A stretch of DNA of 64,000 bases. Source: Candidatus Poriferihabitaceae bacterium. Its GTDB lineage: Bacteria; Pseudomonadota; Gammaproteobacteria; Arenicellales; Poriferihabitantaceae. A program made the position numbers and the translations under genes. The notes under the pieces are model-generated. The model saw nothing but the letters and a program-made list of their open reading frames with translations, had not been told where the DNA came from and did no database searches. The DNA lies in the NCBI GenBank assembly GCA_965214205.1, contig OZ243941.1:1969419-2033418 (forward strand). Reading direction: 5' to 3'. Within the stretch, counting starts at the first letter, position 1, and every line of letters starts with the position of its first letter. Shown here piece after piece: positions 2,351 to 42,455 of the stretch.

Positions 2351-2414
2351 ACAACCCCTTTGAGTTTAAATTTGAATTAGAACCTGGATTAAATGGGGAC
2401 GATTCTACCCCATA

Positions 2415-6602: not shown

Positions 6603-6615
6603 CGCCGGCAGACTG

Positions 6616-7566
6616 TTACACGGACTGGGAAATTCTCGTTCTCACCATCTCCGCCACCTCGACCGCGATCAGGCCGTCTTCGCCGCTGACCAGAGGGCGT
6701 CGATCATGGTTGACACAATCAATGAAGTGAGCCAACTCGACATTCAGGGGTTGTTGGGGAGAGACCGGAATATCACGGCGCACCAGTTCCGGGAAGCTAC
6801 TGCCTTTCTTTTTCCTTCCCGTCCTGACTTCGGATAACTGCTGGGTCAGAAAATTCAATCCCAGATAGCGATCCTCGGAAAACATCCGAATCCGGCGAAA
6901 TCGCTGAGTCGATACCCGGCTGGAAGTGACATTGGCAACCGCTCCGTTTTCAAATTCCAGACGCGCGTTGGCGATATCGACATGATCGGTCACAACCGGC
7001 GTGCCGGTGGCTGAAACGGATTTCAATCCCGACTGGATCAACGACAACACAATATCAATATCGTGGATCATCAGGTCGGTAACCACATCGACATCGGTTG
7101 CGCGTTCACTGAATTCCCCCAGCCGATGGACTTCGATAAACCGGGGTTGTTGCGCCAGTTCCGCTATTTTCATGACCCCTGCGTTGAAGCGCTCCAGATG
7201 GCCGATCTGCAATATACCCCCGGACGCTTCCGCCATCCGGACAATCCGGGCGCTTTCCTCCACAGTCGGAGCGACCGGCTTTTCGAGCAGGGTATGGATG
7301 CCGGCTTCGAGGAAAGGACGCGCGACCGGCAAGTGGGCGCTGGTCGGAACTACAATGCTGACCGCGTCAATCCGCCCCAGAACCTCCGCAGCGTCAGTCA
7401 ACGCCTGACAGTCACAATCCTGCGCGACAGACCGTGCCACGGTCGCATCGGTATCCACCACCGCAATGAGGTCTACATGATCCATTCCCTGATAAATTCT
7501 GGCATGGATTCGACCCAGATACCCTACTCCGATCACCGCGACCCTGATCTTCCTGTTAGTATTCAA
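6616..7566 (-). CDS. Gfo/Idh/MocA family NAD(P)-dependent oxidoreductase
   Basis: N-terminal Rossmann motif RVAVIGVGYLGRIHA, an EKP motif (LLEKPVA) and 316-aa length. Confidence 0.85.
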   Translation of the reverse strand: MNTNRKIRVAVIGVGYLGRIHARIYQGMDHVDLIAVVDTDATVARSVAQDCDCQALTDAAEVLGRIDAVSIVVPTSAHLPVARPFLEAGIHTLLEKPVAPTVEESARIVRMAEASGGILQIGHLERFNAGVMKIAELAQQPRFIEVHRLGEFSERATDVDVVTDLMIHDIDIVLSLIQSGLKSVSATGTPVVTDHVDIANARLEFENGAVANVTSSRVSTQRFRRIRMFSEDRYLGLNFLTQQLSEVRTGRKKKGSSFPELVRRDIPVSPQQPLNVELAHFIDCVNHDRRPLVSGEDGLIAVEVAEMVRTRISQSV

Positions 7567-7567
7567 T

Positions 7568-7595
7568 TTGACAGTTCAGTTATATATGGTAGAAA
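7568..7595 (+). promoter_or_regulatory. Candidate sigma70 promoter for the SDR gene
   Basis: TTGACA (7568-7573), a 16-nt spacer, then TGgTAGAAA (-10 at 7590-7595). This lies ~35 nt upstream of the ATG at 7629. Confidence 0.35.
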
Positions 7596-7628
7596 TAGCG
7601 GGAATGCCTGATTTTACGCAGAAAACAA

Positions 7629-8456
7629 ATGAATAAAAACAATCCGGTTCTGATTACCGGCTGTTCGACCGGCATTGGCCGTTGTCTGGCTTTGGGCTTG
7701 CAGGCCCGGGGCTACCATGTCATAGCCAGTTGCCGCAACCCGGATGACCTGCCTGATCTGGCTGAATCCGGACTGGACGCGGTTATACTCGACCTGGATG
7801 ATTCCGACTCCATCGAAAGCGGCCTCGCCAGGACCCTCGAACTGACGGACGGCAAGCTGTTCGGATTAATCAATAACGGCGCTTATGGACAACCAGGCGC
7901 GGTTGAGGACCTGACCCGGACCAGTTTGCGGGACCAGTTTGAAACCAATGTTTTCGGGACCCAGGAACTCACCAACCGAGTAATCCCGGTCATGCGACGG
8001 GAGAATACCGGCAGAATCATACAGATCAGCTCGATCCTCGGCTTTGTCTGCCTGAAATACCGCGGCGCCTACAATGCCAGCAAGTATGCCCTGGAAGGAT
8101 TGACCGACACCATGCGCCTGGAACTGGCCGGATCCGGGATCGAATTGAGCTTGATTGAACCCGGTCCGATCACCAGTGAATTCAGGGTCAATTCCCTGCA
8201 AAAGTTTATCGAACACATTGATCGAAGCCGCAGCGCCTACCAGGCAGAATACCAGGAACTCGAAAAACGCCTGAAGAGCGACCAGCCGACCCGTTACACG
8301 CTGCCGCCCGAAGCGGTGTTGGAAGCCACCATCCAGGCGCTGGAAAGCCGCCGTCCCAGAATCCGCTATCGGGTAACGACACCGACGAAAGTACTGGCGG
8401 TACTGAAACGTATCCTGACCGACCGGATGCTGGACAACTACCTGCTCAAACGCTGA
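7629..8456 (+). CDS. Short-chain dehydrogenase/reductase (SDR)
   Basis: TGCSTGIG cofactor motif, NNG, and catalytic YNASK (YxxxK). Confidence 0.87.
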   Translation: MNKNNPVLITGCSTGIGRCLALGLQARGYHVIASCRNPDDLPDLAESGLDAVILDLDDSDSIESGLARTLELTDGKLFGLINNGAYGQPGAVEDLTRTSLRDQFETNVFGTQELTNRVIPVMRRENTGRIIQISSILGFVCLKYRGAYNASKYALEGLTDTMRLELAGSGIELSLIEPGPITSEFRVNSLQKFIEHIDRSRSAYQAEYQELEKRLKSDQPTRYTLPPEAVLEATIQALESRRPRIRYRVTTPTKVLAVLKRILTDRMLDNYLLKR

Positions 8457-8482
8457 TCAGCCGGATCTGTTTCCGTTCCCGG

Positions 8483-8968
8483 TTACAGCAACGCCATGAT
8501 GGTTTCGGCGTCACTCACTTCAAGCTCCGGGCCGGATGACTCGACATTCAAATGAGTGACCACCCCGTCTTCAGCAATCAGCGCATAGCGTTGCGAGCGA
8601 ATACCGAAGTTGCGTGCAGTGAGATCCAGTTCAAGACCCAGCGCTTCCGTAAACGACCCACTTCCATCCGCCAGCATCAAAATGTGGTCCTCGACGTTTT
8701 GCGACTTACCCCACGCGTCCATCACAAAGACATCATTCATAGACAAACAGGCGACCGTATCCACGCCTTTCGCCTTGATCGCGTCGTGGTGAACCACATA
8801 CCCCGGCAAGTGGGCCGCGTTGCAGGTCGGCGTAAACGCGCCAGGCAGCGCGAACAGAACCACTTTTTTCTCGGCGAATATCTCATCGGTCGTGATGTCT
8901 TTCGGCCCGTCGGCGGTCATCGTGGAAAGTGATATATTGGGAATCCGATCCCCGATTTTTATGGTCAT
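8483..8968 (-). CDS. Peroxiredoxin (Prx5-type)
   Basis: LPGAFTPTC peroxidatic-Cys motif, 161 aa. Confidence 0.9.
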   Translation of the reverse strand: MTIKIGDRIPNISLSTMTADGPKDITTDEIFAEKKVVLFALPGAFTPTCNAAHLPGYVVHHDAIKAKGVDTVACLSMNDVFVMDAWGKSQNVEDHILMLADGSGSFTEALGLELDLTARNFGIRSQRYALIAEDGVVTHLNVESSGPELEVSDAETIMALL

Positions 8969-9165
8969 GGAAAACGCCTCATCTGATTGTGAATAAATAA
9001 TCTTCGCGTGGTATGCGACTTCCGGGGATTATACACATCATCATCCATTTTTCCCTGCCCCGTACAGAAAAGTCCTTTCTGCCAATCGCGAGCCGCCTGT
9101 TGATGTTCTCGACGGCTCAAATCAGGTTTTGCTTTTGGATGTATCTGGACAAAACCTATACAATA

Positions 9166-9190
9166 TATGTGGTGCAAATTGCACTACATA
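9166..9190. promoter_or_regulatory. 25-bp near-perfect palindrome (candidate operator)
   Basis: TATGTGGTGCAA-A-TTGCACTACATA has 11 of 12 arm positions complementary. It sits ~55 nt upstream of the M24 gene ATG, in the intergenic region shared divergently with the peroxiredoxin gene. Confidence 0.4.
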
Positions 9191-9243
9191 TCAAGGACGG
9201 GACTTCTACACGCAACACGAATTTACACAACCACCAAAGCGCG

Positions 9244-10443
9244 ATGGTAGAGATGATAGATAAAGAGACACAGCAGAAAATACAAGCTCATCGCCTCCAG
9301 CAAATTCGGCTACGGCTACGGCAACATGACTGTGCCGGAGTTGTGCTTTTTGATCCGGTCAACATCCGCTATGCGACCGGGAGCCGCAATATGCAGGTCT
9401 GGACCATGCATAATTTCTGCCGATATGCGCTCATTCTGGAATCTGGCGGGGTTATTCTGTTTGATCTGCCGAGCTCCATGCACTTGGCACAGAACCTGAA
9501 TCACCTATCAGAGCGCAGACCCGCCATCTCCACCGACTATATGATTGTGGGAGAACGCTCCGATGAAATGGCGGCCAGATGGACCGCCGAGTTGAAATCA
9601 GTATTACACGAATCCGGTATACAGCGAGAGAATATCGCCATTGACCGGGCTGATTTACCGTTGTGCCTGGCCTGCCAGAAAGCGGGTATACGGTTAAAAG
9701 ACGGCAAGCCGGTCATGGAAAGAGCAAGAGCGATCAAATCCGTTGAGGAAATAAAGGCGCTCAAATGGTCGCTGAGTACCTGCGAGGACAGCGTTCGTGA
9801 TCTGAGGAACCGGCTTGAACCCGGAATGACAGAATCAGAGGCGCTGGCGCTTCTGATTAAAGGTTGCGTGGAGCGAGGTGGAGAATACCCCGAGACTCGA
9901 CTGCTCACCAGTGGCCCAAGAACCAACCCCTGGTTCCAGGAAACATCGAGCCGTGTCATCAACAACGGAGACCTGATCGCATTCGATACCGACATGATCG
10001 GCCCGTTGGGCTTTTATAATGACATCTCCAGAAGCTGGGTAGTGGGTGATAAAAAACCGACCGACAAACAGAGAAAAGCGTATGAAATCGCGCATGCGCA
10101 ACTACAGCACAATACCGCCCTGCTCACCCCCGGAATGGGATTCCTGGAATACTCGGACAAGGCGTATCAGCTACCTGATAACTGTCTGCCCAACCGCTAT
10201 GCAGATGTCGCTCACGGTTGCGGCCTAGGCGTGGAGTACCCCCTGATCTGGTATCGGGAGGACGAGCAATGGGGCGCTTATGATGGCGTATTTGAAGAGA
10301 ATATGGTGGTCTGCATCGAATGTTATGTCGGAGAGACTGGAGGGCGAGAAGGAGTCAAGCTGGAACAGCCGATCTGGATCAAGGCGGACGGCCCGAAGTT
10401 GTTGTCCGACCTGCCCCTGGAAGCGACCTGCCCTGCGGGATAA
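9244..10443 (+). CDS. M24 family metallopeptidase (creatinase/prolidase fold)
   Basis: Creatinase-like N-terminal domain plus a pita-bread C-terminal domain (FDTDMIGPLGFYNDISR, VAHGCGLGVEYP, ENMVVCIE). The ORF is open from 9013, but the conserved part starts at the ATG at 9244. Confidence 0.78.
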   Translation: MVEMIDKETQQKIQAHRLQQIRLRLRQHDCAGVVLFDPVNIRYATGSRNMQVWTMHNFCRYALILESGGVILFDLPSSMHLAQNLNHLSERRPAISTDYMIVGERSDEMAARWTAELKSVLHESGIQRENIAIDRADLPLCLACQKAGIRLKDGKPVMERARAIKSVEEIKALKWSLSTCEDSVRDLRNRLEPGMTESEALALLIKGCVERGGEYPETRLLTSGPRTNPWFQETSSRVINNGDLIAFDTDMIGPLGFYNDISRSWVVGDKKPTDKQRKAYEIAHAQLQHNTALLTPGMGFLEYSDKAYQLPDNCLPNRYADVAHGCGLGVEYPLIWYREDEQWGAYDGVFEENMVVCIECYVGETGGREGVKLEQPIWIKADGPKLLSDLPLEATCPAG

Positions 10444-10496
10444 CGCAACACGACAAGCGCCGGTCAATCAAACAGGCGCCGGGAACTCTGTAACCG

Positions 10497-11363
10497 TCAC
10501 AACAACCACCAAAGCACAACCGACAGTATGCCAACGGACATCGTGTTTGAAATCAGGACAATGGATGCCACCACTTCCGGCTGCTGGTTGTATTGTTCCG
10601 AAAACAGGAAATTCAGAACCGCGGGCGGTAACGCCGAAAAAAGGACCAGAATCCCTATCTGAAATGCGGTCAGGGGCAATATCCAGACCGCGATAGCCGC
10701 GAACAGAAGCCCCGACAACGGGCAGACCAGACCGGACACGACTCCGATCTTCCAGTGTTCCATCTGCGTCCTTCGCATACGAACGCCCAGGGAAAAAAGC
10801 ATCAGCGGAATCCCGACCTGACCGAGCATGGTGATCGGGAACTGGATAACCTCAGGAAGTCTGGTCTCCGTAAAATTGAACACGAGCGCCAGTATGGTCG
10901 CGATATTGACCGCGTTGCCAAGCAGGCTCTTCCACGACACCGCTCCTCCGAAAAGATAAACGCCAAACGTGAAATGCCCCAGATTGCTGACCAGAAACAA
11001 TATGATCGCGGCTTCCAGTCCCTGCTCGCCAAACGCCAGGACGGCCACCGGCAGCCCCAGATTCCCGCAGTTATTGAACATCATACTCGTCACGAACGCG
11101 CGGTTGGGATATTTCAGAATCCGTCCTATCGGCCAGGCGATCAGGCCCGACCCGACAATAACCAGGATGCCGCCGACAATCAGCCAGCGGTAAGTGATAA
11201 TAGCGAACTCCCCGCCCGCCACGACGTCAAATATCAACGCTGGCAAAAACACTCGTAAAACAAGCCCGTTCGCCACTCCCATATCGGGCTCGAACTTGTA
11301 AGCATACAGGAATCCGAGCAATACGATGATAACTACAGGGAACAGGATCGAGATAATTTCCAA
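10497..11363 (-). CDS. AEC (auxin efflux carrier) family transporter
   Basis: 288-aa polytopic membrane protein with about 9-10 hydrophobic segments and AEC-like layout and length. Confidence 0.7.
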   Translation of the reverse strand: MEIISILFPVVIIVLLGFLYAYKFEPDMGVANGLVLRVFLPALIFDVVAGGEFAIITYRWLIVGGILVIVGSGLIAWPIGRILKYPNRAFVTSMMFNNCGNLGLPVAVLAFGEQGLEAAIILFLVSNLGHFTFGVYLFGGAVSWKSLLGNAVNIATILALVFNFTETRLPEVIQFPITMLGQVGIPLMLFSLGVRMRRTQMEHWKIGVVSGLVCPLSGLLFAAIAVWILPLTAFQIGILVLFSALPPAVLNFLFSEQYNQQPEVVASIVLISNTMSVGILSVVLWWLL

Positions 11364-12039: not shown

Positions 12040-12655
12040 GGAAGTCCACTTCGCCGGTGACGAGGTCGTATTCAGCGCCTACCAGCATGAGCCTGCCCGA
12101 TTCGACGAGCCGCCCGAGCAACTCCGAGCCCTGGGTAAGAGCAGTCACCTGGGCCCGGACATTAGCCCTCCCCGCTTGGCGAATGAGCCTGTCGCGATCA
12201 GTATGCACAGCGGTGTCCAGCAGCGACTGCACGGTCGGGCGGATGCGGTTCAGAATGGCGTCCAGGTTTTCAGAACTGTTTTCGGGAGAAGGGTCCGGTT
12301 CTTTCAGCGCTGCCTCAATAGCGCCGCACCGGGCGTGTCCCAGCACCACCACCAGCTTGACGCCAAATCTGCCGACAGCGAACTCCACGCTGCCCACCTG
12401 GGACGGCGCCGCCACATTGCCCGCCACGCGAATGACGAAGAGATCGCCAAGCCCCTGATCGAACACCAACTCCACCGGCGCCCGTGAATCGGAACAACCC
12501 AGGATGACGGCGAACGGGGCCTGGCTGTCAGCAAGCTGCGCCCGCCGCCGCAAACTGATCGCGCCGCTCCGCCGCCGGCCGGAGACGAAACGCCGGTTCC
12601 CTTCCTTCAGTCGTTCGATTGCCTCCAGGGCGGTCGTATTTCCCATGCGCCCCAC
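12023..12655 (-). CDS. Beta-class carbonic anhydrase
   Basis: CSDSR, VIRVAGN and GHARCGAI zinc-ligand motifs. Confidence 0.87.
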   Translation of the reverse strand: MGRMGNTTALEAIERLKEGNRRFVSGRRRSGAISLRRRAQLADSQAPFAVILGCSDSRAPVELVFDQGLGDLFVIRVAGNVAAPSQVGSVEFAVGRFGVKLVVVLGHARCGAIEAALKEPDPSPENSSENLDAILNRIRPTVQSLLDTAVHTDRDRLIRQAGRANVRAQVTALTQGSELLGRLVESGRLMLVGAEYDLVTGEVDFLDYET

Positions 12656-12658
12656 CTC

Positions 12659-13138
12659 CTACTGGTAACTGACTCCGAGAATTTCGTAAATTCTTTTGCC
12701 GCCGGGCGCAGCGACCTCGATCTCGTCGCCGGTATTCTTGCCCAGCAATGACTTGCCGATTGGCGAGCTGATCGAAATTCTGCCCTGGCTCAGGTCGGCT
12801 TCGAGATTCCCGACCAACTGGTAGGTGACGGACTGGCCTTCATCAACATCGTAAAGATCCACATACGCGCCAAATACCACCCGACCCTCGCGCCCGATCT
12901 TGACCGGGTCGATGACCTCTGCGATGGAAAGGCTGGATTCGAGTTCGGCAATCCGGCCTTCGATAAAACCCTGTTGCTCTTTCGCGGCGTCATATTCGGC
13001 GTTTTCAGAAAGATCGCCATGAGAACGGGCTTCCGCGATAGCGGCTATGATTTTCGGCCGATCAACACTTTTTAGTTTTTTCAGTTCCTCACGCAAGGCC
13101 TCGGCCCCCTTGAGGGTCAACACTACTCTTTCACTCAT
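12659..13138 (-). CDS. greA: Transcription elongation factor GreA
   Basis: Coiled-coil N-terminus with [14 protein letters not shown], 159 aa. Confidence 0.95.
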
Positions 13139-31290: not shown

Positions 31291-31415
31291 TGATCGTAGG
31301 GGCGGGTCTTGTGCCCGCCCGCGAATGGTGGATACCTGTTCCGACATTGTGGGACGGCACAATCATTCCCCCCTTGAGGGGGAATCACATCGCGCGAAGC
31401 GGGTGTGATGGGGGG
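31291..31415. repeat. REP-like hairpin cluster, left island border
   Basis: GGGCGGG-TCTTGTG-CCCGCCC hairpin. ATTCCCCC-CTTGA-GGGGGAAT hairpin (31365-31385). ATCACA..TGTGAT hairpin (31384-31409). Confidence 0.7.
31300..31332 (+). repeat. 33-bp direct repeat, left copy
   Basis: GGGCGGGTCTTGTGCCCGCCCGCGAATGGTGGA is identical to 42423-42455. No other copy was seen in the window. Confidence 0.9.
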
Positions 31416-31496
31416 AACAACCGTCATCGCTGTACCTGTCCACAAATGTCGAAACGCGCTGGCTCAAGAGTGCGACACCCTCAAACCAAACAGTAC

Positions 31497-31988
31497 TCAG
31501 AATGGATCGTTATCACCCGCGCCAGATAACTCAGTGAAATAGGAAAGCTCCATTCGCTCCTCGAAGAATTGCTTTGCCGTCTGGTTTTCATACTCAATCC
31601 GCTCGGCTGGAATGTTTAAGAGCGAAGCTATTCGGTCTTTTTTCTGAGAAATACGATCAGAAACCAAGTCTGCTTTGTCCTCGAAAACAGGCGCGACAAC
31701 TAATACCTTTAGGTATTCGCTCCGCGTTACGGCTTGTCCAATAAGGCCATTTACATAGTCGTCGCTAAAACTGTATCCAATTACCACAATAAATCTCAGT
31801 GCTTCGTTCAACGAATATTTCCGAAGCTCATGAACATAGAACAGGTACGGATCAATTGAACTCAATTTTTCTGCTGTACCAAAAATCAACTCTGGGTTCG
31901 GTTGGGGATTATCGCAGAGCTTCAAGATATTGCCGTTCGCTTCCTCTCGTTCCCAGTCGATTGATCCGTGGAGTTTATAGAGATACAT
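31497..31988 (-). CDS. SIR2_2-like protein, C-terminal half of the domain only (possible truncated NADase effector)
   Basis: YKLHGSIDW and VVIGYSFSDDYVNGLI motifs characterise SIR2_2-type defence sirtuins. No Gly-rich NAD loop is present. The ATG lies 2 nt after the stop of the upstream ORF, in another frame. Confidence 0.65.
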   Translation of the reverse strand: MYLYKLHGSIDWEREEANGNILKLCDNPQPNPELIFGTAEKLSSIDPYLFYVHELRKYSLNEALRFIVVIGYSFSDDYVNGLIGQAVTRSEYLKVLVVAPVFEDKADLVSDRISQKKDRIASLLNIPAERIEYENQTAKQFFEERMELSYFTELSGAGDNDPF

Positions 31989-31990
31989 AC

Positions 31991-33088
31991 CTACATCAGT
32001 GTTCTCGTTAGCATCGAACTTGGTTGCCTCCCATTCACGACCACTATTAAATCCAAGCTCAATACCAAAAGAAGAACCGCTACGAGCATTATCTTGTCGT
32101 TTGTATACGACGCTTTCAACTCTTGAATCTTCGATTCAACAGCCTCTATTGCGTTCGCGTCGAAGGCTTCTACAAGGTGATGATCAATTATGTCCTTGTG
32201 AATCGGCACTGAAAACATATTCTGAAGACCCGAGAACTGTCCGGGAAAAAGTTTACCCAGCACTCCAAGATATACATCTCTCGCCAATGATCTCGTTCTT
32301 TCTGTGAAAAGGAATAGATATCTAACGTCATCTTCCATCGGGCGATACGGGCCATTCGCCTTGATACCCATGAACTGAGATTTGGCTTTACTTCCCTTGC
32401 CAACCAGATAGGTTTTTACATCGAGATGTTTCGCAGGAAGGCTTTCGAATTCTGTTTCAATCTCAAGAGGTGAAGAGGACATCAACGGTGCAAGTACATC
32501 ACATGAGAATGATTCGATTACTGATTTCTTGTCTTTGTAGAAATAAATATTCGGCTTGCCTGAATTGTCCAACGACAAGCTGCGAATTTGCGTTTGTCTA
32601 TTGAACGGCTCTCCTTCGTTGAGAGAGTACTTGTGCTCCAAAAGGAATCCGAACAGCTCTTTCTCTTTCAAGTAATAGGGCTTGACGACGATCTCCGTTG
32701 CGCCATCTTCGTACCTTTCTGTGACGAACCGAACTTCTTTCAGGGGTATCGCTTTTTTTGGTGTGTAATATTCTATCTCCGCTTCAGTCGACCCCACAAT
32801 ATGGTCAAGCAAATCCGAGTAAATCAGATGGACGGTTAAAACAGAATTCTTGCTGAACCGATAGCTGTACGACTCATAGTTTTCTTTCTCGGATTTTGAA
32901 ACATCAAATAGTCGCCACTCGTCACCGCCCTCATGCGCAGGAAGATTTACACGAAAATCGCCGTCCGCTTTGGGTAGGGAACTATCTTCAACAAGCTTCC
33001 GGTAGATCGTCACACTGCGATCTTGCCTTTTAAGCGGAACGAAATTGAGATTGATATCAGACATGCTCATTTCCTCTGCCAGCCGCAA
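31991..33088 (-). CDS. Uncharacterised 365-aa protein; the C-terminal third resembles the start of a prokaryotic Argonaute MID domain
   Basis: It overlaps the hsdS stop, suggesting translational coupling. NGPYRP..RYLFLFTE..FSGLQNMF..AVESKIQELKASYTNDKIMLVAV parallels, from memory only, the GPF..ILVV..SGF..GIVVL layout at the start of pAgo MID domains. It ends in a hydrophobic tail instead of the rest of MID/PIWI. Confidence 0.45.
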   Translation of the reverse strand: MRLAEEMSMSDINLNFVPLKRQDRSVTIYRKLVEDSSLPKADGDFRVNLPAHEGGDEWRLFDVSKSEKENYESYSYRFSKNSVLTVHLIYSDLLDHIVGSTEAEIEYYTPKKAIPLKEVRFVTERYEDGATEIVVKPYYLKEKELFGFLLEHKYSLNEGEPFNRQTQIRSLSLDNSGKPNIYFYKDKKSVIESFSCDVLAPLMSSSPLEIETEFESLPAKHLDVKTYLVGKGSKAKSQFMGIKANGPYRPMEDDVRYLFLFTERTRSLARDVYLGVLGKLFPGQFSGLQNMFSVPIHKDIIDHHLVEAFDANAIEAVESKIQELKASYTNDKIMLVAVLLLVLSLDLIVVVNGRQPSSMLTRTLM

Positions 33089-34403
33089 TTGGTATGGAAT
33101 TACTAAAAGTCTCCCAAGATAAAGTTCCTATTAGTGTTGATGTCCTGCGACTATTCTCAACAATTTCCGTTGAAAGTGCTTTACAAATATCCAACTGGCT
33201 CTCTAGCTTGCTTACAATCTCATCTTGGTCAATTCGTGGAGGCAAAGGAATCAGTGCGTTTGCCACAATCCCTTGATTGATTTTTGGCATGCTCTTCTGC
33301 GCTCCGGTTGCATTAGAGCGGAAGTACTTACGAGAGAATGGGCTTGTAAGAACGTAATGCAGGTACTTGAGAGACAGTTGCTTTGCAAATCTCAACTTCA
33401 TCATTAGATCGGGGTAAATAAATTCGTAATCTTCACCCGTGTATATGGCGGACACCCCCACGTGCTCTAACGAGTTACTTCTTTGTATAAGGATGTCACC
33501 CCTTTCCAACCACAAGTGAGAGTCTTCAGGAATATCCTCATCTATATACTTGATCTGAGAACAATCAAAACTTCCACTCGTAGTCGCTCCTAACTTCAGT
33601 GTTTTCGTTTGCGTTTCAAAGTCTACTGTCTTCGGCGAGTATCCGTTTCTAGGATTTTCATACAGTAACTCACCTAATCGGCACCATTTCCAACTCTTCG
33701 GCAATTCAAACGGTTTTTCTTCATCACTGATAGCTAGTAGAGGCTTTTGCTTTTTCATTTTCTTAACTTTTATCAAGTCGGCTTTTTCAGCAGCGATGTC
33801 TTCCAGCAGTTTGCTGACAGGCTCTACTTTTTGGCTGGTAGCGCGCCAGTCTGTTGTGAGTTTGCCTTCGATGGCCTCCTGCAATATTTGTTGGCGAAGT
33901 TCTTTTAGCAATCCCCGCTGATGAACTAGCTCGCAGTCAAGTAAATCCTTAATTCTTAGAGTGCTCTTGAGCTTTCCAATCCAGAATTCTTGTTGATCGA
34001 TATCGAGATATGGAATTTTATACTTCTTGAAATTCTTCTGATTTATAGACTCTTTCGAAGTACCTGACTTCGTTGCTGAAACCAAGACTGGCCTCAGGGA
34101 GTTGAATACAAAGTGATAGAAACTAAGATTCAGGGGGTACTTGTTGTCGTCCTTTGGCGTAAGGATAAAACACAGATCACTACTCGTGAATTTTCCATCC
34201 ACATAATGCGTGCGCCCGAGTGATCCCGAAGCGGATCCGGCAAAAACAAGCGCTTCACATTCATGGGAATACTCAGTATGAGTCTTCCATTCTTCTGCCG
34301 CTGTAATGAAATCGAACTCACCAGCCAAGCACTTAGTACTTTGCAGGCTTCCTTTTTCAAGATCAAAAAGCGTACCGATGGGCAACATCATGTTTGACAT
34401 CAA
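33057..34403 (-). CDS. hsdS: Type I restriction-modification specificity subunit HsdS
   Basis: 448 aa with two target-recognition halves separated by a coiled-coil spacer (LLKELRQQILQEAIEGKLT). ATGA overlap with hsdM. Confidence 0.9.
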   Translation of the reverse strand: MMSNMMLPIGTLFDLEKGSLQSTKCLAGEFDFITAAEEWKTHTEYSHECEALVFAGSASGSLGRTHYVDGKFTSSDLCFILTPKDDNKYPLNLSFYHFVFNSLRPVLVSATKSGTSKESINQKNFKKYKIPYLDIDQQEFWIGKLKSTLRIKDLLDCELVHQRGLLKELRQQILQEAIEGKLTTDWRATSQKVEPVSKLLEDIAAEKADLIKVKKMKKQKPLLAISDEEKPFELPKSWKWCRLGELLYENPRNGYSPKTVDFETQTKTLKLGATTSGSFDCSQIKYIDEDIPEDSHLWLERGDILIQRSNSLEHVGVSAIYTGEDYEFIYPDLMMKLRFAKQLSLKYLHYVLTSPFSRKYFRSNATGAQKSMPKINQGIVANALIPLPPRIDQDEIVSKLESQLDICKALSTEIVENSRRTSTLIGTLSWETFSNSIPIAAGRGNEHV

Positions 34404-35822
34404 CCCAACTCCTTTCGCAATTTCCCAAGCAATTCATCGCCTTTCAAAAATGACTGGTGCAGCATATCGAGCAATTCTGCGCTGCTGTGCTGTTGCTCTT
34501 CTTCAGGCTGGTGAGGATTCTTAAGATCGAGGTTGTAACCACTGGCTTTGATCGTTTCAAAGTCTACCTGCCATGCTGCTTCGCTCTCTTCTCTGTTAAC
34601 CCACCAATGTTTCAATCCATCGAACTCTACACCCTGAATAGGTTTTGTCTTTGAGTATGCCTTGTATCCTTCAGGCAGCTTGTGCTGGTAATACCAAATC
34701 GTCTTTGTCTGCTCACCCTTGCTGAAAAAAAGCAAGTTAGTCGCTACCGCCGCATAGGGCTGAAATACCGAGTTGGGTAAGCGCACAATCGTGTGTAAGT
34801 TGCAATCTTCAAGTAGTTTTTCGAATACATTGTTTTACACCATCACCCGTAAGCGACCCATCCGGCAAAACAATGGCTGCACGAGCACCCTTTTTGAGTA
34901 GATGAATCATCAAGATCAGAAATAGGTCTGCCGATTCCTTCGTCCGATAAGTCAGCGGGAAGTTATTTTCGTTGTTGTTGGAAACAACTCCGCCGAACGG
35001 TGGGTTTGCCAAAATAACATCTACACGATCTTTCCGTGTGTATTCGGTTAAGGGTCGCTCCAGTGAATCACCATAGCGGATCGAGGGAGTGGTTATGTCA
35101 TGTAATATGAGGTTGGTATTTGCGAGCAAGTATGGAAGTGGTTTGTATTCCCAGCCTCTAACATTCTTGCCGATAGCCTTACGCTCGGCGACGTTCTTTG
35201 CCGTCTGCTTAAGGTGCTCGATAGTTGCGGTCAAAAAACCGCCCGTACCACACGATGGATCAAGTATTGTTTCCCCATGTTGCGGATCGACTAATTCAGT
35301 CATCAACTCTGTCAAAGCACGCGGCGTATAAAATTCCCCTAACGTCCCCGCGCTTTGCAGTTCACTCAGGAATGTTTCATATATCTGCCCAAAAACGTGC
35401 TTGTCTTTACTATTATTGAAGTCGACCTCATTGAGCTTGTTGATAACCTGCCGAAGATGGATGCCAGACTTCATGTAGTTATAGTTATTGTCGAAGACTT
35501 CATGCACCAAGAAAGCGCGTTTATTTCCGGTTGAGAGGTCGATATTCGATAGGGTTGGGAATAGCTTACGATCTACAAAATGCAGCAGTTCGTCCCCTGT
35601 CATTCCCTCATCATCACCTGCCCACTCATCCCAATGAAGCCCCTGAGGTATTGGCGAGGTGTAATCGTCATCCAGCAATTCCAGCTCTTTGTCCTTATCA
35701 CTGAAAATCTTGAGGAATAGCATCCAGCCCAACTGGAGAATGCGCAGCTCGTCACTTCCAGTCCCCGTATCCTGCCACATGATTTTTCGCACTGATTTGA
35801 CTATTCCTGGAATATTGCTCAT
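34400..35822 (-). pseudogene. hsdM: Type I R-M N6-adenine DNA methyltransferase HsdM, interrupted by a +1 frameshift
   Basis: Motif I DPSCGTGGF and motif IV NPPFG lie in the 337-aa ORF. The conserved continuation ..KLLEDCNLHTIVRLPNSVF.. is in the adjacent 128-aa ORF. The frames meet at an A5 run (T5 at 34817-34821 on the + strand). Confidence 0.85.
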
Positions 35823-35825
35823 GCG

Positions 35826-37949
35826 TCAGGCTCCCCAATGCTCTTTTTCGTAGGCGCTTTGATCTTCACGGCTCAATGGCTGCGATGAACAGCCTGTTCG
35901 GACGAAGAAGCCTTCTTCGCCTTCGAAGGTTACGAATACCGGCTTACCGCTCTTGGCAACACGAATGCGGCATATTTGAACATCGTCATAAACAGGAAAA
36001 GTCACCTTTATGTGTGTGCTGTAGCCTCCGCCGATGTATTTCTTGATGATTTCAACAAGATGCAGCTCAAACCCATCAATGTTCTTCTTGCTAAGCGTCT
36101 CAATGTCATCCGTGAGACCGAGAGCATTCTGTTCATCGTCAATACCGATAAACAAATCTCCGCCTTCACTGTTAAGGAATGCAGCAATCGTTTTTGCTAT
36201 AACGTATTCGAGCTTTTTGTTTACGGATTCCGTCCGCAAGTCATAACGAAGCGTGGATTTGAATTCGACCCTGTCACTTTCACCAGCCGTTACTAATTCC
36301 TGAACCTCTTCGTTGGCAGGCTCCTTGTGGCTGAGCTCGATACGCACTTTCAATTCGTCGAAGATAAGCTTAGCGCGCGCCTTCAGGAACGTGTCGTAGT
36401 CATCACTCTCAATACCAAAGCCATTGATATCAATGAAATGAGAATTTAACGCCTTATTGATAGCGGAGTTTTCATCACTGAAATCACCGATATAGCTGGA
36501 AGGTGGTCTCGCCCGAATAGCGCGTTTGTTCAGGCGGTCACCGACAAAAGTGATGTTGACGAGGCTATTGCTGTTTGCAACTTCTTTGTTTTCAAGATAC
36601 TTCTTTGGAAAGAAGTGGTGGTAGTTTTTGCTGCTGGCGATTTTTAACCACGAATTGTCAAGAATGACCCTCCCGTTATCCTGGAAATCCTTTGGCTCCT
36701 GATATGCCAAAAGGCAAAGAACTGCTTTGCAGTAGCTGTTTCCCGCACTGAAATTGGTCTCAATGAGCGCTTTAGGTGAATCAAGGTCAACCTTAATGTC
36801 ACTATAGTCGGGACGCTGGTTCTTTAATATCAGGTCAATTCGTTTGATATCCTGCGCTAACCGAGACTCCGTTGAGCTTGAATAGCGATACGATAGCGAC
36901 ATCCTCCAGAAATATTCTTCCAAATACTTCCGTTGGTCGGACTCCGGCTTTTCCTTGTTCAGGAAAAAGAAGTAAGCAAAAGGCACCAAAAGCGAGTCAT
37001 ACGGAAGAAGCTGCGAGACGGGAATTCGATATGTCGTGCGAAAATAGTCAATACTGTCTTTGAGGGCGGAGATAGCATCTTCCCATTTGTCAATAATCGC
37101 CTGCTTGTCGAGTGCCAAAATTGTCTTGCGCTTACATTCTTTGGTTCGACTCAGCACCAGAGAAAGCAAACTCAGAATTACCGTGCTGTATACGCCCTCA
37201 TACTTAATCGCCTCCAGCTCCTTTATGAAGGCTTCCCATTTTGCCTGCATGTCGAACTTCTGCTCTTCGTCATAAGTCTTCGCAGACATAATCTCAAAGA
37301 GCGTTAGCGTCTGGCCGCCCGTATTGATGCGCGTAAATACTTCAATTGCAGAATCAATGTCCTCTTTAAGTAGGACAACAGTCGAAAACGTATAGGTCTT
37401 AAAAGCGGTGGAATATGCGTCTATCAACTCCAATTCGTCTCCACTGAATTCTTCGGAAAGTTCTCTTGCCTTGCTGTAACTGAAGTTCAAGACATCAGAC
37501 AAAGAGATATACTTCTCTCCGCTCGGTTTGGCTGTAATGACTTGATCGTCATTTTCACCAAGGTTCTTGTCGAGGTTCACGACAATACCGCTATAGTCCG
37601 TTATTTTCTTTTCGCCTGTCTTTTGAATCTGTGCACCGCGGTAAGCGGCAAATAGTGACGTTATTCGCTGCTGGCCATCGAGGACATATTGAACCTTTGT
37701 TCCTTCCGGCGTTTCCGGTATCTCAAGATTTCCAACATTCTTGATATCATTAATACGCTCATCGGTCTGCCAAAGAATGAATGTGCCAATCGGATAGCCC
37801 TTCAAAATACTATCTAACAGCTTGGCCGTCTTATCGATACTCCAAACGAACTCGCGCTGAAACTTCGGAATTTTGATTATTCCTTTCTGTATCTCATTAA
37901 TGAGATCAGAGTATTTCTTCGAGTCCGGCTTGGGCTGTTCAAAATTCAT
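35826..37949 (-). CDS. GmrSD-like DUF262 / His-Me-finger (DUF1524-like) protein fused to a C-terminal AlbA_2 (Schlafen-like) domain
   Basis: N-terminus: IPKFQREFVW ... DGQQRITS. Middle: NYHHFFPKKYL..NSLVNITFVGDRLNKR. C-terminus: ESDRVEFKSTL...AAFLNSEGGDLFIGIDD...FFVRTG. It is nested between hsdR and hsdM with 14-nt and 3-nt gaps. Confidence 0.82.
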   Translation of the reverse strand: MNFEQPKPDSKKYSDLINEIQKGIIKIPKFQREFVWSIDKTAKLLDSILKGYPIGTFILWQTDERINDIKNVGNLEIPETPEGTKVQYVLDGQQRITSLFAAYRGAQIQKTGEKKITDYSGIVVNLDKNLGENDDQVITAKPSGEKYISLSDVLNFSYSKARELSEEFSGDELELIDAYSTAFKTYTFSTVVLLKEDIDSAIEVFTRINTGGQTLTLFEIMSAKTYDEEQKFDMQAKWEAFIKELEAIKYEGVYSTVILSLLSLVLSRTKECKRKTILALDKQAIIDKWEDAISALKDSIDYFRTTYRIPVSQLLPYDSLLVPFAYFFFLNKEKPESDQRKYLEEYFWRMSLSYRYSSSTESRLAQDIKRIDLILKNQRPDYSDIKVDLDSPKALIETNFSAGNSYCKAVLCLLAYQEPKDFQDNGRVILDNSWLKIASSKNYHHFFPKKYLENKEVANSNSLVNITFVGDRLNKRAIRARPPSSYIGDFSDENSAINKALNSHFIDINGFGIESDDYDTFLKARAKLIFDELKVRIELSHKEPANEEVQELVTAGESDRVEFKSTLRYDLRTESVNKKLEYVIAKTIAAFLNSEGGDLFIGIDDEQNALGLTDDIETLSKKNIDGFELHLVEIIKKYIGGGYSTHIKVTFPVYDDVQICRIRVAKSGKPVFVTFEGEEGFFVRTGCSSQPLSREDQSAYEKEHWGA

Positions 37950-37963
37950 TCAATGTTTCCTGT

Positions 37964-40351
37964 TCATGCAGCGTTGTAGATTGCCTGCTCAAGATTGGTT
38001 ACGGCCATCCTGTATTGATTCTTGCCGCCGAATAAACTGACAATTTCTATCGGGGTGCCAATTTCATCAAATGGATTCACCGTCAGTATCTTGATGTCTT
38101 CGATATTCTCGATACCTTCATCAGCGTACTTATCCAATAACGCTTCAAGCACTTGTCTGGCCTGCTCACCGTACTTTGTGAAATAGTCACGCTTCTTCAC
38201 GTTGTTCGCTCTCTCGGCTCTCGTGAGCGGTGGCTGGTCAAAAGCAGTATGACAGATCAAATCAAAGATATCCATTTCCTTACTGATTGTCTCTTTTAGA
38301 TTTTCAAAGACGAGCCCCTGCTCGGTTAGCTCGTCGATGATGGCTTGCTTTCTCTCTGCTGAATGCCACTTATTCAGGAAGTCGTCCAAAGACGCAAAAT
38401 GTTCTCTGACTTTTTGTCTGGTGTAATCTCTCAGGCTTCCAGTGATTAGTTTGCCATTACCATTCAGGTACTGAACGCGCTCGTTGAGAATGGCGACATT
38501 GATGCCATTTACGTAGTATTTAGGTCTCGGCTCGCCGATGCTCTCTCCGCCCGCGGTTATCTCCGGCTCCTGTGGTATTGGATCGAAAATTACGGCATCA
38601 CCATCTTCATCAACCACGTCTTCAGCTTCTTCGATCTCTTCTTCGTATGTGTCGAACTCATCAGATTCTTCGAGTTCTTTGATCCGTACGGGATCACCAT
38701 CAAAATCAGTATCAGCGAATAGATCGGTAACATTGCGGAAGTCCATAATCGTGAAAAATTTCTTGCCATATTCTTCATTTATGCGGGTTCCACGACCGAT
38801 AATTTGTTTGAATTCGGTCATTGAACCGATGTTGCTATCCAGGACGATCAACTTGCAAGTCTGTGCATCGACTCCGGTGGTCATCAGCTTGGAGGTCGTT
38901 GCGATAACAGGATAGTCTTCTTCCGGGTTGATGAAGTTATCCAACTCACGCTTGCCTTCTTGATTATCCCCAGTAATCTGCATGACATACTTGCTATTGC
39001 TAGCCATGAGGTCGCTGTTTGCATTCGCGATTGCGGAGCGCATTCTTTGTGCATGGTCAATATCAGCACAGAAAATAATCGTTTTGTCGGAGCGGTTGGT
39101 CTTCTTCAAGAACTCCGTCACCTTGTCAGCGACCGTTTGTGTACGCTCATCTATGACGAGATTTTTGTCGAAGTCTTTTCGGTTGTAGATACGATCCTCG
39201 ACCACAAGCCCCTGCTTGTCTGTCTTCCCTAACTCTGGCCTCCAGCCCTCCAGATCAACATTCAATCCGACCCGAAGCACTTTGTAGGGAGCAAGGAAAC
39301 CGTCTTGTATTCCCTGCTTGAGGGAGTACGTATATAGCGGCTCGCCAAAATACCCGGTACTGGAAACCGTTTCTGTTTCTCTGGGTGTGGCAGTAAGGCC
39401 AATATGCGTCGCACTATTGAAGTAGTTCAAGATTTCGCGCCAAGCGCTGTCTTCCACCGCGCTGCCCCGGTGGCACTCGTCAATAATAATCATGTCAAAA
39501 AATTCTGGACTGAATTCCCGATAGGCATCTTTGTCTTCGTTGTAGTCCGTGAGACCTTGATAAAGCGCCAGATAAATCTCGTAGGACTTGTCTATTTGTT
39601 TATGCTTTACGACCGTCATTTTGTTCTTGAAATGACGGAAGTCACCGCGCCTGGTTTGGTCAATGAGAGCATTTCTATCAGCAAGGAACAGAATTCGCTT
39701 TTTTGTTCCGCTCTTCCACAGACGATGGATAACCTGGAATGCCGTGTAGGTCTTTCCAGTACCCGTCGCCATGGTCAGTAAAATTCGAGACTGACCTTTG
39801 GCAATTGCTTCAACGGTTCTGTTGACAGCAATTTGCTGGTAGTAACGCGGGGTTCTCCCCGAACCATCGAAAAAGTAGTCTTGGGCACTAATTCTTTCTT
39901 GTTCTTCTGTTTGAATGCCTTTGTATTTTTTATAGCGTTGCCAGAGTTCCTGTGGTGATGGGAAGTTGTCGAGCGCTAACTCCCTTTCGATGTTTCCGTC
40001 ACTACATGTTCGGTCATGCTCGTAGAAAGCATCGCCATTGCTGCTGTAAACAGTTGGGATGTCAAGAATTCTAGCGTAATTCAGCCCTTGTTGAATTCCA
40101 GCATTGATGGAGTGTTTGTTGTCTTTGGCTTCAATGATTGCAATAGGAATATTGGGCTTATAATAGAGAATGTAGTCCGCTCGTTTCCTCTTGCCTCTGG
40201 TAGTCAAATTGCCCTTTACGTAGATTCTTCCATCCGTAAATGACACTTCTTCGCGGATTTGCGTCTGCATATCCCAGCCCGCTTTCTCCAGAGCCGGACT
40301 AATGAATTTCGAGCAAATATCGCGTTCTGATAAGCTTTTCTTTGAGGTCAT
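37964..40351 (-). CDS. hsdR: Type I restriction endonuclease subunit HsdR
   Basis: N-terminal PD-(D/E)xK-like region (IIEAKD), helicase motif I MATGTGKT and motif II DECHRG, 795 aa. Confidence 0.93.
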   Translation of the reverse strand: MTSKKSLSERDICSKFISPALEKAGWDMQTQIREEVSFTDGRIYVKGNLTTRGKRKRADYILYYKPNIPIAIIEAKDNKHSINAGIQQGLNYARILDIPTVYSSNGDAFYEHDRTCSDGNIERELALDNFPSPQELWQRYKKYKGIQTEEQERISAQDYFFDGSGRTPRYYQQIAVNRTVEAIAKGQSRILLTMATGTGKTYTAFQVIHRLWKSGTKKRILFLADRNALIDQTRRGDFRHFKNKMTVVKHKQIDKSYEIYLALYQGLTDYNEDKDAYREFSPEFFDMIIIDECHRGSAVEDSAWREILNYFNSATHIGLTATPRETETVSSTGYFGEPLYTYSLKQGIQDGFLAPYKVLRVGLNVDLEGWRPELGKTDKQGLVVEDRIYNRKDFDKNLVIDERTQTVADKVTEFLKKTNRSDKTIIFCADIDHAQRMRSAIANANSDLMASNSKYVMQITGDNQEGKRELDNFINPEEDYPVIATTSKLMTTGVDAQTCKLIVLDSNIGSMTEFKQIIGRGTRINEEYGKKFFTIMDFRNVTDLFADTDFDGDPVRIKELEESDEFDTYEEEIEEAEDVVDEDGDAVIFDPIPQEPEITAGGESIGEPRPKYYVNGINVAILNERVQYLNGNGKLITGSLRDYTRQKVREHFASLDDFLNKWHSAERKQAIIDELTEQGLVFENLKETISKEMDIFDLICHTAFDQPPLTRAERANNVKKRDYFTKYGEQARQVLEALLDKYADEGIENIEDIKILTVNPFDEIGTPIEIVSLFGGKNQYRMAVTNLEQAIYNAA

Positions 40352-40406
40352 CCGCTAGCTCGCTTTATTTCTGTTTACGCAACACATCCCGTCACTTTAC
40401 TATCAT

Positions 40407-40432
40407 TCGTTTAAGGAATCGTTTAAGGAATC
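40407..40432. repeat. Tandem 12-bp repeat (2 perfect units plus 2 nt)
   Basis: TCGTTTAAGGAA TCGTTTAAGGAA TC, in the AT-rich divergent region between hsdR and the AbiEi gene. Confidence 0.9.
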
Positions 40433-40494
40433 TCTGATTAATTTACTCTCTATTGTATAATGATTTTTAATTCTTTAATGGCGGGAGATTTCTT

Positions 40495-40599
40495 ATGATT
40501 CGCCGGAGTACATTTTCCGCGATTAGGTTTGGTAAATACAGTAAGAAAACGCGCAAGGGCAACCCACGGCACTTTGGCATGAAGGTCCTATTGGCGTAG
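40495..40599 (+). CDS. Candidate 34-aa basic small ORF (below the ORF-track cutoff)
   Basis: ATG at 40495 preceded by GGGAGA with a 6-nt spacer. TGTATAAT at 40454-40461 lies ~35 nt upstream. Translation: MIRRSTFSAIRFGKYSKKTRKGNPRHFGMKVLLA. Confidence 0.22.
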   Translation: MIRRSTFSAIRFGKYSKKTRKGNPRHFGMKVLLA

Positions 40600-40655
40600 A
40601 CAAACCTGTAATATTCAGATTTTCCTTAAATTTATTTTGATTTTGTGTTAGTTTC

Positions 40656-41501
40656 ATGGTTATGAACCAACCAAGAACACCAAGATTAAAACCACTGCTT
40701 GAGGCGTTCCCCCCAGGATTAATCGTAGATACGACATGGCTGAAGGCTCGGGGTATCGACTCAAAATCCATCCATGATTACGTCGCGCGCGGATGGATCA
40801 AGCGTGTGACCCGAGGCGTATACCGCCGTCCACCACCAAACGGTGCACGGGCTGACGACTTGTCCTGGCAGGTGGTCCTTATCTCACTGCAACAACTCAT
40901 GGGCCACGATGTGCATCTGGGAGGGGAAAGTGCGCTGGAATTCGAGGGCCATGTTCACTATTTGGAACTGGGAGTGATGGGACCTGTTCATCTTTACGGA
41001 AACACACCTTCGTGGATTAAGCGCCTGCCAACTACGAGACGGATAGCGCTGCACCGCCCCGTTCTTTTCAGTGGGGATCTGACAGGGATTGAAGAGACCG
41101 ATGGTCGGGATGGGGAGGACGAGTGGGTCGCGCATGTCTGGCGCTGGCCCATGAGGCTATCGTGCCCCGAACGTGCTATCCTGGAAGCGATTGGTGAACT
41201 GCCGAACAAAGCAAGTTTTGAGCACGTTGACCGGATATTTGAGGGCCTGACAGGTTTGCGTCCCAGACTACTCATGGAGCTCTTGGCGGCCTGTCGCAGC
41301 ATCAAGGTTCGGCGGCTGTTTTTCGTATTCGCGGAAAGACACGGACACGGCTGGCTAAAACACGTGGAACCCAGACGGGTTGACCTCGGAAACGGACCGC
41401 GGTCTCTGGTTCGGGACGGCAGGTTCCACCCAACCTACCGTATCTCCGTTCCCGAATTCCTCATCCCCGTGAGACAGATGGACGCGACTGGCGGTGCTTG
41501 A
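40656..41501 (+). CDS. AbiEi-like type IV toxin-antitoxin antitoxin / transcriptional regulator
   Basis: N-terminal wHTH-like segment (TTWLKARGIDSKSIHDYVARGWIKRVTRGVYR). 8-nt overlap with the downstream nucleotidyltransferase gene. Confidence 0.72.
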   Translation: MVMNQPRTPRLKPLLEAFPPGLIVDTTWLKARGIDSKSIHDYVARGWIKRVTRGVYRRPPPNGARADDLSWQVVLISLQQLMGHDVHLGGESALEFEGHVHYLELGVMGPVHLYGNTPSWIKRLPTTRRIALHRPVLFSGDLTGIEETDGRDGEDEWVAHVWRWPMRLSCPERAILEAIGELPNKASFEHVDRIFEGLTGLRPRLLMELLAACRSIKVRRLFFVFAERHGHGWLKHVEPRRVDLGNGPRSLVRDGRFHPTYRISVPEFLIPVRQMDATGGA

Positions 41502-42405
41502 TCGATACGTCGCGCAGGTACGTCTGTTGGTGGACATGCTACCCGAGGTTGCAGCGGAATCCGATTTCGCGCTCAAGGGCGGCACTGCCATCAATCTGTT
41601 CTACCGTAACCTGCCAAGACTATCGGTCGACATTGACCTGACCTGGCTCCCGGTCGCCGATCGCACAGCTTCACTCAGGGAGATTGATAGCGCTCTTAAC
41701 CGCATCGTTACCTCAACCAACCGGAACAAACCTCGGATTACGGTAATTCGCCCGATGGGTGGTGGAAATAATGACACTAAAATATTGGTGAGGCGCGACC
41801 GCGTGCAAATTAAGATCGAGACTTCACCAGTGGCAAGGGGCACCGTGTTCCCGCCAAAGCAGATGGAGGCATCCGAGTCTGTCATGGAGCAGTTTGGATT
41901 CGTGGAATCACACGTGCTCGCTTTCGAGGATCTGTATGCCGGTAAACTCGTTGCCGCTCTTGACCGCCAGCATCCGCGCGACCTGTTTGATGTCAAGCTA
42001 CTTTATGAAAATGAGGGGCTTACCGATAAACTTTTCCGCACATTCCTGGTATATGTTTCTGGTTCTCGAAGACCAATGCACGAGCTACTAGCGCCTGTTT
42101 TGCCATGCTGGGGCGACCGGTATGAAACCGAGTTTACAGGCATGACCCGGAATCCGGTTTCATCAGAAGCGCTCCTTGAGACGGGACGGTATCTGCATAG
42201 TGACATCCGAGCACGGTTGGCAGGCAGGGTTGCAGACTTTTTGCTCTCACTCCACGACGCCCAGCCAGACTTCGGATTAATTGGGTTGCCTGAGGCCGTG
42301 GAATTACCATCGGTACGCTGGAAGCTACTAAACCTTGAGAACCTGAAGACAACCAACCCTGTCAAACATGCAATGCAGCGCAACGCTCTCGAGCAACTGC
42401 TGTGA
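41494..42405 (+). CDS. AbiEii/AbiGii family nucleotidyltransferase toxin (DUF1814)
   Basis: LKGGTAINLFYRNLPRLSVDIDLTW nucleotidyltransferase motif, 303 aa. Confidence 0.85.
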   Translation: MLDRYVAQVRLLVDMLPEVAAESDFALKGGTAINLFYRNLPRLSVDIDLTWLPVADRTASLREIDSALNRIVTSTNRNKPRITVIRPMGGGNNDTKILVRRDRVQIKIETSPVARGTVFPPKQMEASESVMEQFGFVESHVLAFEDLYAGKLVAALDRQHPRDLFDVKLLYENEGLTDKLFRTFLVYVSGSRRPMHELLAPVLPCWGDRYETEFTGMTRNPVSSEALLETGRYLHSDIRARLAGRVADFLLSLHDAQPDFGLIGLPEAVELPSVRWKLLNLENLKTTNPVKHAMQRNALEQLL

Positions 42406-42422
42406 TAAATAATCTAAATTGC

Positions 42423-42455
42423 GGGCGGGTCTTGTGCCCGCCCGCGAATGGTGGA
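42423..42455 (+). repeat. 33-bp direct repeat, right copy
   Basis: Identical to 31300-31332. Confidence 0.9.

Follow-up and report, generated by a model that had tools for sequence, protein, structure and literature searches.

A BPAS (long-B Argonaute and SIR2) module, very likely pseudogenised by a single deletion, at the tail of a type I restriction-modification cassette

In a 64,000-nt stretch of contig OZ243941.1 (Candidatus Poriferihabitaceae bacterium), referred to here as the window, two adjoining open reading frames (ORFs) of 365 and 163 aa lie on the minus strand at the end of a type I restriction-modification (R-M) operon. An earlier note, made from the letters alone, had described them as an Argonaute-like gene abutting half a SIR2 domain and had offered three readings: (a) a deletion running from within a prokaryotic Argonaute (pAgo) gene to within the gene of its SIR2 partner, (b) a sequencing frameshift hiding one fusion protein of ~530 aa, or (c) a genuine two-gene module of a new type. 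Comparison with intact relatives indicates that the locus is, very likely, a pseudogenised BPAS, that is, a long-B pAgo gene followed by a bAgaS gene, broken by one deletion of ~1.4 kb, and not a new architecture. The system is already known; the window holds a dead copy of the described BPAS anti-plasmid system. We refer to the two remnants as pAgo' and 'SIR2.

The ORF listing and the translations agree with the layout given in the earlier note. The 365-aa ORF runs from 33088 to 31991, with its TAG at 31993..31991, and the 163-aa ORF (31988..31497) lies in another frame, 2 nt past the end of the first. The frame of the 163-aa ORF is open for 49 codons further upstream, to 32135, with no start codon in that stretch, and its translation contains KLHGS and VIGYSFSD. 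The proposed start codons needed one correction: 33070 and 33064 are indeed ATGs, whereas 33088, the start in the ORF listing, is a TTG. The start conserved among homologues (MSDI..LNF) is the ATG at 33064, which gives a product of 357 aa and overlaps the end of hsdS (stop TGA at 33059..33057) by 8 nt.

Profile searches assigned both ORFs to families, with similarities far beyond chance. Residues 9-338 of the 365-aa ORF match positions 1-318 of the 617 in the PADLOC profile pAgo_II (E 4.3e-72), and the 163-aa ORF matches PADLOC Aga_SIR2 with E 3e-46; for the whole 212-aa open frame the latter match reaches E 1.3e-52 and covers positions 166-343 of 343. The locus thus combines the 5' half of a gene with the 3' half of the one after it. 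The defence-specific PADLOC profiles alone resolved both ORFs, whereas the Pfam profile search gave no match on the 365-aa ORF and, on the 163-aa ORF, a sub-threshold SIR2_2 hit of 22.5 bits against a cut-off of 24.5 bits. At the protein level, pAgo' is 88-90% identical to residues 1-325/330 of two 635-aa Piwi proteins (P0002 and P0003). 'SIR2 is 91% identical to residues 165-362 of the intact SIR2 protein from one relative, locus L001, and the 163-aa ORF begins at an internal Met of the SIR2 gene. The Argonaute-like and SIR2-like characters first ascribed to the two ORFs are upheld by these matches.

A protein search with an Argonaute query over 5.8 billion clusters returned 72 homologues; nearly all measure ~635 aa and contain Pfam Piwi, and identity over the first ~330 residues reaches 90%. 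Among the 5.8 billion clusters, the sole truncated entry at high identity was the window's own protein, and an exact look-up of this truncated protein in the contig index gave no record. Two loci, L001 (identical to L003, a Candidatus Azotimanducaceae metagenome-assembled genome (MAG) chromosome) and L002, carry the same six-gene cassette intact, in the order hsdR (795 aa), GmrSD_N+SLFN_AlbA_2 (707 aa), hsdM (474 aa), hsdS (643/651 aa), pAgo (635 aa, Piwi) and, after 13 bp, SIR2_2 (362 aa). By scanning one genome per GTDB species we recovered related loci: in twelve loci of different GTDB species the pAgo gene is followed by the SIR2 gene after 13-30 bp, and a thirteenth (L015) holds a fragment only. 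The twelve are mostly from Gammaproteobacteria, plus one delta-proteobacterial and one Clostridia MAG, and all are MAGs except the isolate Thiopseudomonas acetoxidans. The intact relatives match PADLOC pAgo_II (E 1.5e-193) and Aga_SIR2 'Class II' (E 1.6e-123) from end to end.

Alignment of the window with these loci reveals the gap directly. By blastn, the window matches L001 in three blocks, 40410..33958 to 2001..8453 (85%), 33079..32073 to 9986..10989 (91%) and 32070..31495 to 12437..13012 (92%), and it matches L002 over 33079..32071 (8227..9232, 91%). From the pAgo start to the SIR2 stop, L001 measures 3010 bp and the window 1568 bp, one extra codon included. Base-by-base comparison with both sides of the intact loci set the junction between 32071 and 32070. 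Of pAgo, codons 1-331 (window numbering) are retained and residues ~331-635 lost; of SIR2, codons 173-362 are retained and residues 1-172 lost, and the 13-bp spacer is gone as well. A tblastn search found no other pAgo or SIR2 pieces in the 64-kb window. The DNA of the last 27 codons of the Argonaute ORF (31991..32070) aligns in the other frame to SIR2 codons 173-199 of L001 and L002. The earlier note had remarked that a hydrophobic tail stands where the guide pocket and PIWI should follow; this is correct, and the tail is SIR2 sequence read out of frame. Reading (a) is therefore the one that the half-profile matches and the 1,445-bp gap relative to intact relatives bear out.

The same comparison speaks to reading (b), in which an error of 1-2 nt would conceal a fusion of the N-terminal and MID parts of a pAgo to the C-terminal part of a SIR2 protein. 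In its favour, the two frames adjoin, and that of SIR2 continues without a stop past the junction on the upstream side. Correcting the frame would not, however, restore the MID pocket, the PIWI domain or the NAD-binding, catalytic half of SIR2; against relatives of 91-92% identity the window is short by 1,445 bp; and none of the 72 Argonaute-search matches is a ~520-aa homologue or has such a domain order. We consider this reading refuted, its probability being practically negligible.

Systems that pair a long-B pAgo with a Sir2_2 protein have been named BPAS (Song et al., Nat Commun 2023, PMC10620215). In BPAS, a catalytically dead long-B pAgo restrains the SIR2 protein; with 5'-phosphorylated RNA guides the pAgo recognises invader DNA and the SIR2 NADase is released, NAD+ is depleted and the infection is aborted (PMC10620215). 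GbBPAS consists of GbAgo (HAG96803) and GbbAgaS (HAG96802): bAgaS alone kills cells, GbAgo suppresses the killing and co-purifies with bAgaS, a plasmid with CloDF13 origin triggers NAD+ depletion, and the N155A substitution in GbbAgaS abolishes this depletion (PMC10620215). The Sir2_2 domain of bAgaS resembles ThsA, with NAD-site residues in common, N155 of GbbAgaS corresponding to N112 of ThsA (PMC10620215). Using the GbAgo and GbbAgaS sequences from the supplement of Song et al. in BLASTP, we found 38% identity between pAgo' and GbAgo (E 2e-71) and 40% between 'SIR2 and residues 167-348 of GbbAgaS (E 6e-44), while the intact SIR2 protein of L001 is 43% identical to GbbAgaS over its full length. 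The long-B pAgo-SIR2 systems named in the earlier note were thus the right family. The intact relatives (635 + 362 aa) share with BPAS the gene order, pAgo and then a separate SIR2_2 protein of ~350 aa, as well as a PIWI that is probably inactive, as in BPAS, where the DEDX tetrad is lost, the Y-K-Q pocket of MID and, in SIR2, the catalytic Asn and His, both conserved, and judged by these sequence features they are divergent BPAS members.

The window copy departs from BPAS in just the parts that the deletion took. Its pAgo is not a complete long pAgo (profile positions 1-318 of 617 only), half of MID and the whole PIWI domain being gone, and with them the 5'-phosphate guide-binding pocket (Y-K-Q-K). 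In a 50-sequence alignment of homologues, Y344, K348 and Q359 are invariant; they lie 14-29 residues past the breakpoint, so the window ORF is without them. In alignment, Q359 pairs with Q137 of AfPiwi, a residue of the 5'-phosphate pocket. An AlphaFold (AF2) model of an intact homologue (pLDDT 86.6, pTM 0.84) places MID strands at 245-252, 292-296 and 322-330, followed by a helix at 343-353, which puts the breakpoint where the third strand (E322-330) ends, just ahead of the helix with Y344 and K348. The model and the alignment vindicate the proposal that residues ~235-335 form the start of MID, with the Y..K pocket due next. As for PIWI, the columns of D541 and D611 of CbAgo, presumably the catalytic Asp positions, hold S408 and an LHLPYK stretch (Pro in the printed alignment) in intact P0003, which argues that this pAgo family is catalytically inactive. 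On the SIR2 side, the KLHGS motif with its His and the GYSFSDD motif remain in 'SIR2, whereas the GAGAS loop and the catalytic Asn do not. This Asn, N159 of the L001 FTLNYD motif, falls in the deleted part and aligns with N155 of GbbAgaS.

Other systems resemble the family less. The best fold matches of the modelled homologue are structures of RsAgo, the long-B Argonaute of Rhodobacter sphaeroides (PDB 5awh and 6d8p; E 8e-27, TMq 0.66-0.68), likewise a catalytically inactive long pAgo, and this fold agrees with the Argonaute assignment. RsAgo differs, however, in that it is only ~12% identical to the intact homologue in sequence, with similarity at the sequence level only from residue ~301 of the homologue on, a part mostly deleted in the window, and in that its chains have ~715-760 residues against 635 aa. 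SPARSA likewise pairs an inactive Argonaute with a SIR2 NADase in abortive infection, but its pAgo is short (MID-PIWI only) and its SIR2 is fused to APAZ, whereas the intact relatives have an N-terminal lobe of ~200 aa before MID and a stand-alone SIR2_2 partner without APAZ. On account of this lobe and the absence of APAZ we rejected membership in SPARSA; the PADLOC short-type profile Aga_SIR2-PNTD matched only 36 residues of the intact relatives (E 2e-6). Thoeris ThsA differs from BPAS as well: BPAS is without the SLOG domain and the ThsB partner, and is regulated by an Argonaute instead of a cyclic nucleotide signal.

The alignment shows what happened: one deletion of 1,445 bp, by illegitimate recombination, took away the second half of pAgo, the 13-bp spacer and SIR2 codons 1-172, and joined the stumps out of frame. 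With the lost half of pAgo went the MID 5'-phosphate pocket and all of PIWI; with the lost SIR2 codons went the catalytic Asn and the Gly-rich NAD loop. The 357/365-aa ORF would then yield at most an N-lobe fragment with a nonsense tail of 27 residues, and the 163-aa ORF a non-catalytic back half of SIR2; judging from the parts they lack, neither product should bind guides or hydrolyse NAD+, and the module would be inert. Since bAgaS is toxic unless restrained by its pAgo, loss of sensor and effector in one step would be a tolerated route of loss.

Several points weigh against a dead module. One is that the deletion might exist only in the assembly, as an artefact or a minority haplotype, and that the organism carries an intact BPAS. 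The assembly is apparently of metagenome type, a single contig encodes the truncated protein, and the lesion in neighbouring hsdM is a change in homopolymer length (A7 to A5), possibly a base-calling error. We found, however, no microhomology or repeat at the junction that could have caused a deletion or made an assembler collapse 1,445 bp, and both flanks are colinear with the intact loci. Moreover, L019, an independent, syntenic sister genome with the same flanking genes and a cassette that is 95.5% identical over window 41505..33877, has a larger loss at the same place: it is without window 33877..31333 entirely, that is, the 3' half of hsdS, pAgo' and 'SIR2. This argues that the decay is real in the lineage, and we regard an artefact or a minority haplotype as very unlikely.

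The other points concern the state of the stumps. The pAgo' ORF is probably still transcribed and translated, as its native start overlapping hsdS has been kept; a promoter and terminator scan of 31200-33400 gave fewer sites than shuffled sequence. Neither stump has further stops or frameshifts, and dN/dS relative to intact relatives is barely raised, at 0.20 vs 0.16 for the N part of pAgo and 0.086 vs 0.044 for the C part of SIR2. The inertness of the products, in turn, is our inference. The dN/dS values and the open stumps would be compatible with a retained function of the N-lobe fragment, and one may ask whether a truncated Argonaute N-lobe (N/L1/L2 and part of MID) has been kept as a stand-alone protein, for example a regulator or decoy, in a two-gene module of a new type. 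The native start, the 331 uninterrupted codons and a dN/dS of 0.20 like that of intact relatives would fit, as would protein P0046 in locus L016, which also loses homology near residue 319-322, directly downstream of hsdS. Yet the tail of the protein is out-of-frame SIR2 sequence, the truncated form is unique to the window contig, and L019 has lost the remnant. Nor is the dN/dS ratio informative on relaxed selection, because the N half evolves fast even in intact pAgo genes (0.16 against 0.047 in the C half). L016 may be chimeric: it ends 31 bp past the stop, followed by unrelated GC-rich sequence (157 bp, 5006-5163, up to the contig end), and we set it aside as a second independent truncation near the same residue, the case being ambiguous so near a contig end. 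A retained N-lobe protein thus appears highly improbable, and reading (c) was rejected, given the full-length genes in every intact relative and the discarded remnant in L019. For the pseudogenised BPAS that we favour, the lack of further stops and the barely raised dN/dS indicate that the deletion is probably recent.

Table 1. Features of the BPAS remnant, the R-M cassette and the surrounding island (positions in the window).
Feature	Position	Strand	Description
pAgo' remnant	32071..33064	-	codons 1-331 of a long-B Argonaute gene: N-terminal lobe and first three MID strands
Out-of-frame tail of the pAgo' ORF	31991..32070	-	27 codons, LLVLSLDLIVVVNGRQPSSMLTRTLM followed by the stop; SIR2 coding DNA in the wrong frame
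'SIR2 remnant	31497..32070	-	codons 173-362 of a bAgaS-type SIR2_2 gene
Deletion junction	32070..32071		blunt; 1,445 bp missing vs L001 and L002 (3n+2, out of frame)
hsdS (448 aa)	33057..34403	-	Pfam Methylase_S, E 2.6e-15; last 8 nt overlap the pAgo' start
hsdM, split	34400..35822	-	two ORFs, matching N6_Mtase positions 2-200 and 212-310
GmrSD_N + SLFN_AlbA_2 gene, intact, 707 aa	35826..37949	-	between hsdR and hsdM; Pfam GmrSD_N E 6.5e-33, SLFN_AlbA_2 E 1.7e-15
hsdR, intact, 795 aa	37964..40351	-	first cassette gene; Pfam ResIII, EcoEI_R_C, HSDR_N; 94% aa identity to L001 hsdR
AbiEi/AbiEii type IV toxin-antitoxin pair	40656-42405	+	host-like GC, adjoins the cassette
33-bp direct repeat, right copy	31300..31332	+	GGGCGGGTCTTGTGCCCGCCCGCGAATGGTGGA, REP-like stem-loop; 33/33 identity with the left copy (blastn of the window vs itself)
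33-bp direct repeat, left copy	42423..42455	+	just beyond AbiEii

The remnant is the tail of a horizontally acquired, low-GC type I R-M/GmrSD-SLFN cassette (Table 1) that is itself decaying. The cassette (~31.45-40.5 kb) has 43-47% GC against 54-57% in the flanks, and lies between a gene for a proV-like ABC ATPase and the AbiEi/AbiEii pair, with housekeeping genes beyond. The two copies of the 33-bp repeat bracket an island of 11 kb comprising AbiEi/AbiEii, the cassette and the BPAS remnant. We found no tRNA in the 64-kb window and no integrase or mobility genes between the flanking housekeeping genes. In L019, the two ends instead carry copies of another REP-like element, of 79 bp (window 42477-42555); AbiEii has been deleted there, and the AbiEi call is 163 aa long, compared with 281 aa in the window.

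The R-M operon is not all intact, hsdR and hsdS being open and hsdM split. Indeed, the frameshift that the earlier note had placed in hsdM is present in the sequence: alignment with L001, L002 and L019 traces it to a 2-nt contraction of an A-run at ~34822 (A5 in the window, A7 and in frame in L019). Genuine slippage, phase variation or a sequencing error in the homopolymer may lie behind it. L019 carries separate lesions, a 13-nt poly-G insertion and a 19-nt insertion. Elsewhere, a related hsdM of the same 90% cluster is interrupted by an insertion sequence (IS) element (rve/HTH_Tnp_1) in two Logan contigs (L020 and L022), and in a Candidatus Thiodiazotropha lotti MAG (L021) the contig ends at a truncated hsdM. 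The GmrSD-SLFN protein matches the PADLOC candidate PDC-M55C (E 1.6e-64) and is 94% aa identical in L001, L002 and L019; judged by sequence, the cassette may have no other defence gene that still functions. Synonymous divergence from L001 is ~0.86-0.94 for hsdR and GmrSD and ~0.27-0.32 for pAgo and SIR2, which shows the cassette to be mosaic. The central and 3' target-recognition part of hsdS cannot be aligned to L001 or L002, blastn homology stopping at 33958 and resuming at 33079, and this unalignable region (33958..33080) suggests module exchange.

Lastly, we compared the surroundings of BPAS across loci; the patterns are side observations from ~15 loci and not a statistical survey. BPAS follows hsdS on the same strand in the window, L001, L002, L016 and L011, and in L011 hsdM lies downstream of SIR2, so that the pAgo-SIR2 pair is embedded in the R-M operon between hsdS and hsdM. 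In L009 it comes after hsdM, in L008 and L017/L018 after a type IIG Eco57I-MTase/BsuBI-PstI fusion gene, and in L010 after a pair of ResIII and N6_N4 methylase genes; in L007, a XamI/Eco57I pair lies upstream of BPAS on the opposite strand. This repeated docking at or in R-M operons hints at co-transcription or functional coupling beyond the clustering of defence islands; a literature search for a described coupling of BPAS with R-M returned nothing specific. The tail of the R-M cassette, too, points to a slot that may be swappable. In L020, an AAA_15/AAA_21 ATPase gene follows hsdS in place of BPAS, and the orf59-ArdA genes come next, as in L001.

Independently damaged BPAS copies are found at several other loci. 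L017/L018 (L017:3060-5000) combine an out-of-frame internal deletion of 235 bp in pAgo with an internal deletion of ~850 bp in the SIR2 core, L015 (4454-4681) keeps pAgo residues 148-223 alone, and L008 (11626) has a pAgo frameshift at codon 542 with SIR2 intact. Decay might tend to strike the catalytic core of SIR2 before the Argonaute or together with it, as in the window and L017/L018, and this would be expected if free bAgaS is lethal. That these patterns amount to a co-transcribed or functionally coupled docking at R-M genes, to an effector-first rule of decay or to an N-lobe fragment retained as a regulator seems, all in all, rather unlikely.

In practice, the ORF pair should be annotated neither as two hypothetical proteins nor counted as an active defence system. 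The locus illustrates, in a clean and datable form, the loss of a toxic abortive-infection module, with sensor and effector disabled in one step, and L019, from which the remnant is gone, represents the next stage of decay. The intact cassette of L001 and L002 (type I R-M, GmrSD-SLFN and BPAS) would be a convenient natural construct for testing cooperation between R-M and BPAS. If the SIR2-first pattern of loss were true, it would constitute an effector-first decay rule for toxin-like abortive-infection systems.

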